64,000 nucleotides of DNA from a virus (taxonomy: Duplodnaviria; Heunggongvirae; Uroviricota; Caudoviricetes): the IMG/VR virus record IMGVR_UViG_2654587772_000002. One strand, given 5' to 3'. The position numbers were made by a program, and so were the translations under genes. Shown here in pieces: positions 55,252 through 56,022 of the stretch. Position 1 is the stretch's first letter. The number at the start of each line of letters is the position of its first letter. The notes beneath the pieces were generated by a model. It made no database searches and had not been told where the DNA came from. It saw only the letters and a list, made by a program, of their open reading frames with translations.

Positions 55252-55758
55252 TTGAGTATTTTCAATAAACACGCACACCAGGAACGTCCGTATATCGTCA
55301 TAGTCGATATTGATGGAACAATATCAGAGGCAACTGAAGACAGACTGCATTTGCTTCCGCCACCAGGTAAAGGTGCATTAACAAAGGACTGGAACGAGTT
55401 TAATCTCGCCTGTGACACTGATACTCCCATAACTCCAGTTATTGATATTGTGCGCCAGTTATTTAACGTTTACACGGTCTGGTTTGTAACCGGGCGCTGT
55501 GAGATCGCAAGGGATAAAACACGAGCCTGGCTGCGGAAGTACGTAACAAACGGGGCTGAGCCTTTGCTATCTATGCGTCCTGCCACCGATGACAGAAGTG
55601 ACGGCCCAGCAAAGATTGATCTCCTTAAGAAAATTGGTCTAAGTAAAATCGCGTTCGCGCTGGAAGATAAGATTGAAGTGGCGCGTGTTTTCAGGAGGCA
55701 CGGCGTGCTTACGTTAATGGTCAGGGAGTATGAAAATGCGCTTCTTCATCAGCAATAA
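55252..55758 (+). CDS. HAD-superfamily phosphatase (polynucleotide 3'-phosphatase-like)
   Basis: motif I VIVDIDGT; about 168 aa. Confidence 0.5.
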   Translation: MSIFNKHAHQERPYIVIVDIDGTISEATEDRLHLLPPPGKGALTKDWNEFNLACDTDTPITPVIDIVRQLFNVYTVWFVTGRCEIARDKTRAWLRKYVTNGAEPLLSMRPATDDRSDGPAKIDLLKKIGLSKIAFALEDKIEVARVFRRHGVLTLMVREYENALLHQQ

Positions 55759-55774
55759 TTACTCTAATAAATCT
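55758..55774 (+). promoter_or_regulatory. C1-repressor-operator-like site (ATTACTCTAATAAATCT)
   Basis: consensus-like motif about 85 nt upstream of a small peptide ORF. Confidence 0.4.
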
Positions 55775-55856
55775 TGATTTTTAAAACAGAGAAAGTGAAA
55801 ATAAAAACTTGCCGCAAGGCGCGGCATGTATCCAATCAATCACAGGAGCTGAAAAT

Positions 55857-55943
55857 ATGAACACGGCATTCAAAATCATTATGGCCGCGATCTATTTCTG
55901 GCTGTTCTCTATCACTTTTGGCGGCATCGTCGCGCATGGGTAA
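55857..55943 (+). CDS. candidate small hydrophobic peptide (28 aa)
   Basis: MNTAFKIIMAAIYFWLFSITFGGIVAHG; RBS GGAG upstream; followed by a strong 10-bp hairpin. Confidence 0.2.
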   Translation: MNTAFKIIMAAIYFWLFSITFGGIVAHG

Positions 55944-56022
55944 GGGGAGTATATTAGCCATTTGGAACCCCACGGTCTCTTGCGGGTTTAATTAAGAACC
56001 CGCAAGAAAAACACGAATTGGG

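Follow-up and report, generated by a model that had tools for sequence, protein, structure and literature searches.

A small predicted membrane-protein gene at the head of the C1-controlled Op88 operon of P1-like phage-plasmids

In bacteriophage P1 (record NC_005856), the monovalent C1-controlled operator OpmgT (formerly Op88) is followed by two predicted sigma-70 promoters (P1pmgT and P2pmgT) and then by pmgT-pmgU-pmgV. The records of P1 and P7 annotate no gene between this operator and pmgT/upf86.8. The genes pmgT, pmgU and pmgV are non-essential in a CRISPR interference screen (PMC10695390), and variable region 8, as described for P1-like phage-plasmids, spans pmgT to humD (PMC9603915). Here we describe the orthologous locus in IMG/VR virus record IMGVR_UViG_2654587772_000002, a P1-like phage-plasmid of which a stretch of 64,000 nucleotides (nt), hereafter the window, was analysed. 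The operator, promoter region and leader of the window are orthologous to those of P1, and they are followed by a small open reading frame (ORF) of 28 amino acids (aa), which is the subject of this work.

Type IC hsd loci are reportedly flanked by P1 DNA (Tyndall et al. 1997, Mol Microbiol 23:729, cited in PMC12707154). The P1 record itself notes homology to the sequence downstream of the EcoDXXI and R124/3 hsd loci. The window is the same in kind as the P1-flanked loci EcoR124, EcoDXXI and EcoprrI, here inside an intact P1-like plasmid; its hsdR is of the EcoR124 family and, as in those loci, P1 homology has a constant starting point beyond the 3' end of hsdR and returns upstream of hsdM with the end of humD, followed by phd and doc.

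We put the probability at about 0.7 that the window carries the conserved head of the Op88 operon with a real gene for a small membrane protein, joined to foreign hsd cargo. Earlier work had already described the operator, the variable region and the P1-flanked type IC hsd cassette. A conserved family of small proteins encoded first in the Op88 operon, with a corrected start codon, appears to be new: no description of the small ORF was found in the literature on Op88, on pmgT or under the peptide string.

The small ORF and its homologues

The gene and its translation signal are located as follows (positions are those of the window).

55857..55943, + strand: small ORF, 28 aa, MNTAFKIIMAAIYFWLFSITFGGIVAHG, first gene of the Op88 operon (ATG at 55857, TAA at 55941-55943)
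55845..55849, + strand: Shine-Dalgarno sequence AGGAG, within a conserved CAATCA(C/T)(A/C)GGAGC block

A first-pass annotation of this DNA had noted a ribosome-binding site followed by a 28-aa hydrophobic ORF. Both are present, with 7 nt between AGGAG and ATG, and the ORF proves to be a conserved, selected gene for a hydrophobic peptide with a single helix.

The decisive evidence comes from divergent relatives, P1-like phages in which PmgS is only ∼68-70% identical and homologues of the small ORF occur at the same position. In Cronobacter phage JK004 (PmgS 69.5% identical), pap is followed by ATTGCTCTAATAAATAT, a hairpin, CCAATCAATCACCGGAGC and the ATG of a 53-aa ORF. Database searches with the JK004 ORF and with the family profile returned further homologues of 53 aa (loci L099 and L100/L101) and of 48 aa (locus L102, a Logan contig from SRR10079640). 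The 53-aa forms of L099-L101 lie in ppp-pmgQ-pmgR-pmgS-pap synteny, and L102 has the same synteny without pap. In L102 the operator, promoter, hairpin and small ORF come directly after pmgS; the regulatory head and small ORF are therefore independent of pap.

Four residues (M1, K6, A11 and W15) do not vary across the alignment of 28- and 53-aa forms, and L102 has them too. The first ∼24 residues are hydrophobic in all forms, while the tails differ and the P1 form has none. Across clades, dN/dS (the ratio of non-synonymous to synonymous divergence) in frame is 0.22-0.39 (p = 0.002-0.03), compared with ∼0.5-2.4 in shifted frames. Over the first 25 codons of P1 and L102, the proportion of changed synonymous sites (pS) is 0.80, which is saturated, and that of non-synonymous sites (pN) is 0.19 (p = 0.0015). 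The start codon and Shine-Dalgarno sequence are likewise conserved across the divergent homologues. Sequence comparison with these relatives thus shows the small ORF to be a protein-coding gene under purifying selection.

The conserved part of the product is a predicted N-terminal transmembrane helix: the best 19-aa hydropathy window of the small peptide scores 2.10, and an AlphaFold2 model of a 53-aa homologue places a helix at residues 2-23 with a predicted local distance difference test score (pLDDT) of 84-89. The peptide would insert in the inner membrane, and Lys6 near the N-terminus suggests that this end probably faces the cytoplasm. No match beyond generic transmembrane helices was obtained in Pfam, PHROGs, NCBIfam, PADLOC or the sequences of the PDB, and a profile search of 1.84 billion representative proteins returned the small-ORF family alone.

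Closer relatives were compared in a set of 87 loci, retrieved with the neighbouring Pap protein as anchor. Three were set aside, two with an insertion in the ORF and one in which the contig ends inside it. (In the P1-like IMG/VR loci L059 and L068, an insertion lies after codon 19, ...FSI/NKKTL...) The 28-codon ORF is intact in the alignment in both P1 and P7 and in the remaining 84 loci, which segregate 8 synonymous and 10 non-synonymous alleles; no mutation among them creates a stop. The resulting pN/pS of 0.35 (one-sided p = 0.027) is the lowest of the six frames, and the corresponding value for pap is 0.21. Since the copies are all closely related, this signal of selection is weak, though suggestive.

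A 44-aa form starting at 55809 (WP_001312275.1; SJ46 gp098) is called 'hypothetical protein' or 'membrane protein' in some records. Stops or indels break its 16-codon N-terminal extension in ∼22 of 92 P1-type loci, and the divergent clades lack it; on this comparison the 44-aa annotation is wrong, and the start is corrected to that of the 28-aa form.

The regulatory head and coupling to downstream genes

Upstream of the small ORF, three elements make up the head of the operon.

55758-55774, + strand: C1 repressor operator, orthologue of P1 Op88/OpmgT, ATTACTCTAATAAATCT (from P1 annotation, alignment and consensus scan)
55774..55802, + strand: sigma-70 promoter, P1pmgT in the P1 record (predicted in the P1 annotation; recurs across clades)
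55808..55828, + strand: GC-rich leader hairpin at the predicted mRNA 5' end (from folding and cross-clade comparison)

What had been described as an operator-like site is, by orthology with the site known in P1, a genuine repressor operator, the C1 operator Op88, adjoining a promoter that is kept in four clades. Its counterpart in the P1 alignment is 84293-84309, and ATTACTCTAATAAATCT agrees with the asymmetric 17-bp consensus of P1 C1 operators, ATTGCTCTAATAAATTT, at 15 of 17 positions. A scan of the window with this consensus, allowing ≤3 mismatches, finds 9 sites compared with 0.23 expected from shuffled sequences. Relative to P1, the window carries a G>A change at 55761 (operator position 4), which is absent from the other 86 aligned loci and could weaken C1 binding.

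The promoter consists of a -35 element TTGATT (55774-55779), whose first base is shared with the operator, a 17-nt spacer and a -10 element GAAAAT (55797-55802). In JK004, L099/L100 and L102, the same -35 recurs, the spacer is exactly 17 nt and the -10 reads NANAAT, while the spacer sequences differ. The order of operator, -35 (TTGATT or TTGTTT), 17-nt spacer, -10 and hairpin is constant in all four clades, the -35 shares a base with the operator in each, and the GC-rich hairpin always starts 3-7 nt past the -10. By this comparison the regulatory head is conserved as a unit across the four clades.

The position of the leader hairpin is the same in every clade although its stems are unrelated in sequence: CATGCCGC/GCGGCATG in most P1-type loci, GGCCGC/GCGGCC in JK004, TTGGCAGTCAC/GTGACTGCCAA in L099 and AAGGCCAC/GTGGCCTT in L102. 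Among the divergent clades (only 5 sequences), both sides have changed in 6 of 11 pairs, and 92.6% of cells in the hairpin are paired, compared with 18-47% in slid controls. This comparison used a clade-restricted alignment; an all-clade MAFFT/RNAalifold analysis mis-aligned the hairpins and predicted no pairs. Single-change wobble variants give G-U pairs in the + strand RNA only, and the variation as a whole fits a stem-loop at the mRNA 5' end. In the window, an A>T change at 55809, absent from the other 86 aligned loci, breaks one pair of the stem. The same change converts an upstream in-frame ATG to TTG. Both it and the change at 55761 are shared by at least 8 E. coli records, which match the window over 55700-56060 with 100% identity. 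A minus-strand terminator call at 55826..55810 is the leader hairpin itself, its T-run being the promoter -10 region read backwards; it is ruled out by the lack of a T-run in other clades and by the wobble variants, which fit the + strand only. Long-range pairing of the leader with the 3' end of the ORF is not significant in folding (z = -1.7).

The small ORF is closely joined to the gene that follows. Its stop codon overlaps the next start as ATGA in JK004, L099 and L100 and as TGATG in L102. In P1 and P7 its TAA lies inside the pmgT Shine-Dalgarno sequence (TAAGGGGG-N4-ATG), and in P1 the sequence past the small ORF reads TAAGGGGG-ATGC-ATG, the last ATG being the pmgT start. The following genes are unrelated between clades: pmgT/upf86.8 in one, and a 104-aa winged helix-turn-helix-like protein with a 161-aa protein in the others. 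These arrangements suggest that translation of the small ORF probably delivers ribosomes to the variable accessory genes that follow. The window lacks this geometry, the next gene having been replaced.

An alternative built on the same overlaps, in all divergent clades as well as in P1, is that the small ORF is a translational leader only, whose translation opens up the mRNA and passes ribosomes on to the following gene, the peptide itself having no function. Several observations weigh against a functional membrane peptide, and some of them would favour such a leader. The selection signal inside the tight P1 group is, by itself, weak. Natural variants persist in which deletions removing the stop codon extend the peptide by 9-37 residues, and others in which the ORF is truncated by IS1 (IncF plasmids, R124 type) or interrupted, so that C-terminal extensions and losses are evidently tolerated. 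Variants of the amino-acid sequence are concentrated in loci that continue into hsd (13 of 23) compared with those that continue into pmgT (2 of 60), a pattern in keeping with a role linked to the downstream genes lost there. The family is found only in P1-like elements, so characterised homologues offer no inference. The transcription start, expression and membrane location are read from sequence. P2pmgT of the P1 record and a third promoter candidate from a consensus scan would place the hairpin inside the leader and not at its 5' end.

A role as leader alone is nevertheless unlikely. It does not account for the amino-acid constraint already described (in-frame dN/dS across clades, and a low pN between P1 and L102 where synonymous sites are saturated), for the four invariant residues or for a helix that stays hydrophobic across clades. 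The gene is also kept where its coupled partner is wholly different; no other gene of the operon is constant, which speaks for a role of its own. In addition, pN/pS in hsd-type loci (0.32) is not significantly above that in pmgT-type loci (0.19). Synonymous diversity, too, is higher in hsd-type loci. Relaxed selection there is suggested by the count of altered peptides and is not shown by pN/pS. Nucleotide diversity (pi) of the small ORF (55857-55940) is 0.028 in hsd-type and 0.008 in pmgT-type loci, a ∼3.4-fold difference, with similar pap diversity in both; 5 of the 8 non-synonymous alleles of hsd-type loci are G>A on the + strand. Relaxed selection could account for the higher diversity, as could mutagenesis caused by hsdR read-through transcription.

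The cargo junction and the hairpin beside hsdR

The features flanking the operon head are listed below.

55252..55758, + strand: pap, HAD-type polynucleotide 3'-phosphatase (PF25109, E = 7e-12)
55944..55948, no strand: backbone/cargo junction GGGG/A, at 55947/55948 (end of P1 and P7 homology)
55948..56022, - strand: 75-nt 3' flank of plasmid/P1-borne type IC hsdR, with an 11-bp hairpin at 55978-56007
56023..59139, - strand: hsdR, EcoR124-family type IC restriction subunit, 1038 aa (RefSeq annotation of identical DNA)
59262-60473, - strand: hsdS
60470-62032, - strand: hsdM

The stretch that begins with pap and ends with the small ORF has 94-99% identity to P1, P7, SJ46, RCS47 and others, and is found in ∼900 E. 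coli replicons, of which most are plasmids. Among the backbone genes, pap comes last before the operator, and its stop codon shares the operator's first base. Identity between P1 (NC_005856) and the window is 96.6% over 698 nt and ends at the junction, 4 nt past the small ORF stop. On this alignment an inverted 6.2-kb hsdR-hsdS-hsdM cassette replaces pmgT through humD of P1, and the P1 backbone resumes at the right junction (∼62132/62133) with the humD end, followed by phd/doc. No terminal repeats were found flanking the cassette. Among the 87 Pap-anchored loci, ∼60 continue into pmgT/upf86.8 without the 11-bp hairpin and ∼23 are hsd-type and carry it. The first-pass annotation had the ORF abutting the 3' end of hsdR: the adjacency is real (hsdR is convergent with the small ORF and ends at 56023, 79 nt past its stop), but it is secondary, the cargo cassette having replaced pmgT onward.

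Cargo junctions cluster at the small ORF stop (55939-55948), where GGGTAAGGGG precedes the pmgT-type as well as the hsd-type continuation. In L044, L088, L090 and L091, four deletions that arose independently begin after GGGTA, three of them destroying the stop codon; three of the four were traced into downstream cargo genes, where those three share a TA microhomology of 2 nt. Position 29 is Tyr in all five protein variants with a C-terminal extension. The clustering points to a mechanistic hot spot of deletion or recombination. The conjugative IncF plasmids NZ_CP023845 (L092) and NZ_LC520268 (L093) carry the same hsd cassette with only ∼85 bp of P1 DNA, and IS1 cuts their ORF at codon 2-3; such copies probably explain ∼324 plasmid records with 90-95% peptide identity and the 'membrane protein, partial' entries.

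The perfect 10-bp stem noted downstream of the ORF is real and extends to 11 perfect pairs (TCTTGCGGGTT/AACCCGCAAGA) with an 8-nt loop. The window holds 10 distinct perfect hairpins of ≥10 bp, compared with ∼0.2 per simulated sequence; by these counts the hairpin, like the operator, did not arise by chance. (Two of the perfect hairpins, at 55199-55227 and 42178-42202, contain the Chi octamer GCTGGTGG in the stem; the former lies between pmgS and pap and is canonical and terminator-like, with TTTTTT after the stem.) When the 11-bp hairpin is folded, z is -2.8 for the + strand and -3.1 for the - strand, and its 87-nt context folds at ∼-27 kcal/mol on both strands.

The earlier assignment of this hairpin to the peptide unit did not hold, since the junction at 55947/55948 separates the two, the hairpin is absent where hsd is absent, and no U-tract follows the stem. 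The 75-nt segment that contains it is full-length in 539 plasmids (in a search that did not list neighbouring genes) and directly adjoins hsdR in every hsd-type locus inspected. It is absent from P1, P7 and all non-hsd relatives compared, as well as from type IC hsdR loci on chromosomes, in which homology to the window sets in at 56021-56033. The chromosomal genes (leuX island of E. coli; L094 1449-1478, and L095) match the plasmid gene as far as the stop codon at ∼90-94% identity and are followed by an unrelated 9-bp hairpin, CCTGATCTG/CAGATCAGG, at the same 14-nt distance and likewise without a U-tract. By this distribution the 11-bp hairpin belongs with the 3' flank of hsdR, and a stem-loop just past the gene seems to be a feature of type IC hsdR 3' ends.

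Whether the hairpin acts as a terminator or insulator, for the peptide transcript, the convergent hsdR transcript or both, has to be weighed separately. Its stable, GC-rich stem, its placement 13-15 nt after the hsdR stop, the different hairpin at the same distance in chromosomal loci and the near invariance of the stem in the hsd-type loci examined (one G>A variant) would all suit such a role. However, no U-tract follows on either strand (the + strand continues AAAAACACG and the - strand GAGACCGUG), and a terminator scan does not call it. As terminator of the peptide gene it is rejected on these grounds and because it was seen only beside hsdR: since it is missing wherever hsd is, the peptide transcript must natively end elsewhere. 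Overall, a terminator or insulator function is doubtful; the hairpin may instead stabilise or process the 3' end of the hsdR transcript, without being a canonical terminator.

Proposed function and related systems

A mechanism consistent with a real membrane-protein gene at the operon head can be outlined. In the lysogen, C1 bound to the 17-bp operator adjoining the -35 would shut the sigma-70 promoter, presumably by occlusion. Upon infection or induction, transcription would start early, near 55808, and the GC-rich stem-loop at the start of the mRNA may stabilise its 5' end. The strong Shine-Dalgarno sequence would then drive translation of the 28-aa peptide, essentially one transmembrane helix, and ribosomes finishing the small ORF would help to start translation of the varying genes behind it. 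Most likely, the peptide is produced early in the lytic cycle as a small inner-membrane protein and acts on a membrane component of host or phage. In the window, replacement of pmgT to humD would leave the peptide gene as an orphaned operon head, from which a derepressed Op88 transcript would probably run past the 11-bp hairpin, antisense into hsdR. A more far-reaching version, in which the peptide is an early-lytic membrane effector and the induced promoter, reading antisense through the hairpin into hsdR, also lowers restriction, is rather improbable; if true, prophage induction would lower restriction while unmodified phage DNA replicates.

A different reading of the same layout, raised in the first-pass annotation, is a repressor-controlled toxic peptide that damages the membrane on C1 derepression, by analogy with the LexA-controlled type I toxins TisB and DinQ. 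At 28 aa the peptide falls within the size range of these toxins (hydrophobic, <60 aa) and resembles them in its single helix, and a tightly repressed promoter is consistent with a harmful product. No promoter-like site was found on the minus strand in 55200-56500, and Rfam gives no match in the region at E up to 1, a search that would miss an RNA of an undescribed kind. The known type I toxin families (Hok, Ldr, TisB, Ibs, ShoB and others) give no match in Pfam, NCBIfam or PADLOC, and the peptide resembles no family in these databases or in PHROGs. Its gene is the first cistron of a coupled, multigene early operon and not a stand-alone toxin/antitoxin locus. Overall, a toxin is quite unlikely. 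The weakest alternative, a chance open frame kept because P1-like plasmids are recent, near-identical copies, draws on P1-type copies being 94-100% identical (so that conservation within the group means little) and on the omission of the ORF from the reference annotations, and is very improbable, being effectively refuted by the cross-clade dN/dS and the P1-L102 pS and pN, along with the conserved start codon and Shine-Dalgarno sequence in phages whose PmgS has diverged so far.

P1 is among the most used and best annotated phages, and its reference annotation is without this conserved small membrane-protein gene heading a C1-controlled operon. P1-like phage-plasmids now attract study because they carry resistance and defence genes; the small ORF marks the exact left edge of one of their main cargo-exchange hot spots and bears on the expression of inserted accessory genes. 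The gain is incremental until a function is shown.

Among described systems, TisB and DinQ are likewise short, hydrophobic and placed behind a repressor-bound promoter, and by analogy they offer one comparison; the small ORF differs from them in its coupling to downstream genes, in not standing alone, and in having neither a detected antisense RNA nor homology. A second comparison is with the small inner-membrane proteins of <50 aa such as MgtR, KdpF and AcrZ (those of phages are reviewed in PMC11323111). The small-ORF family has no sequence similarity to these proteins and is limited to P1-like elements, but it shares with them a single hydrophobic helix of similar size and a gene that lies at an operon's edge and has a ribosome-binding site of its own.

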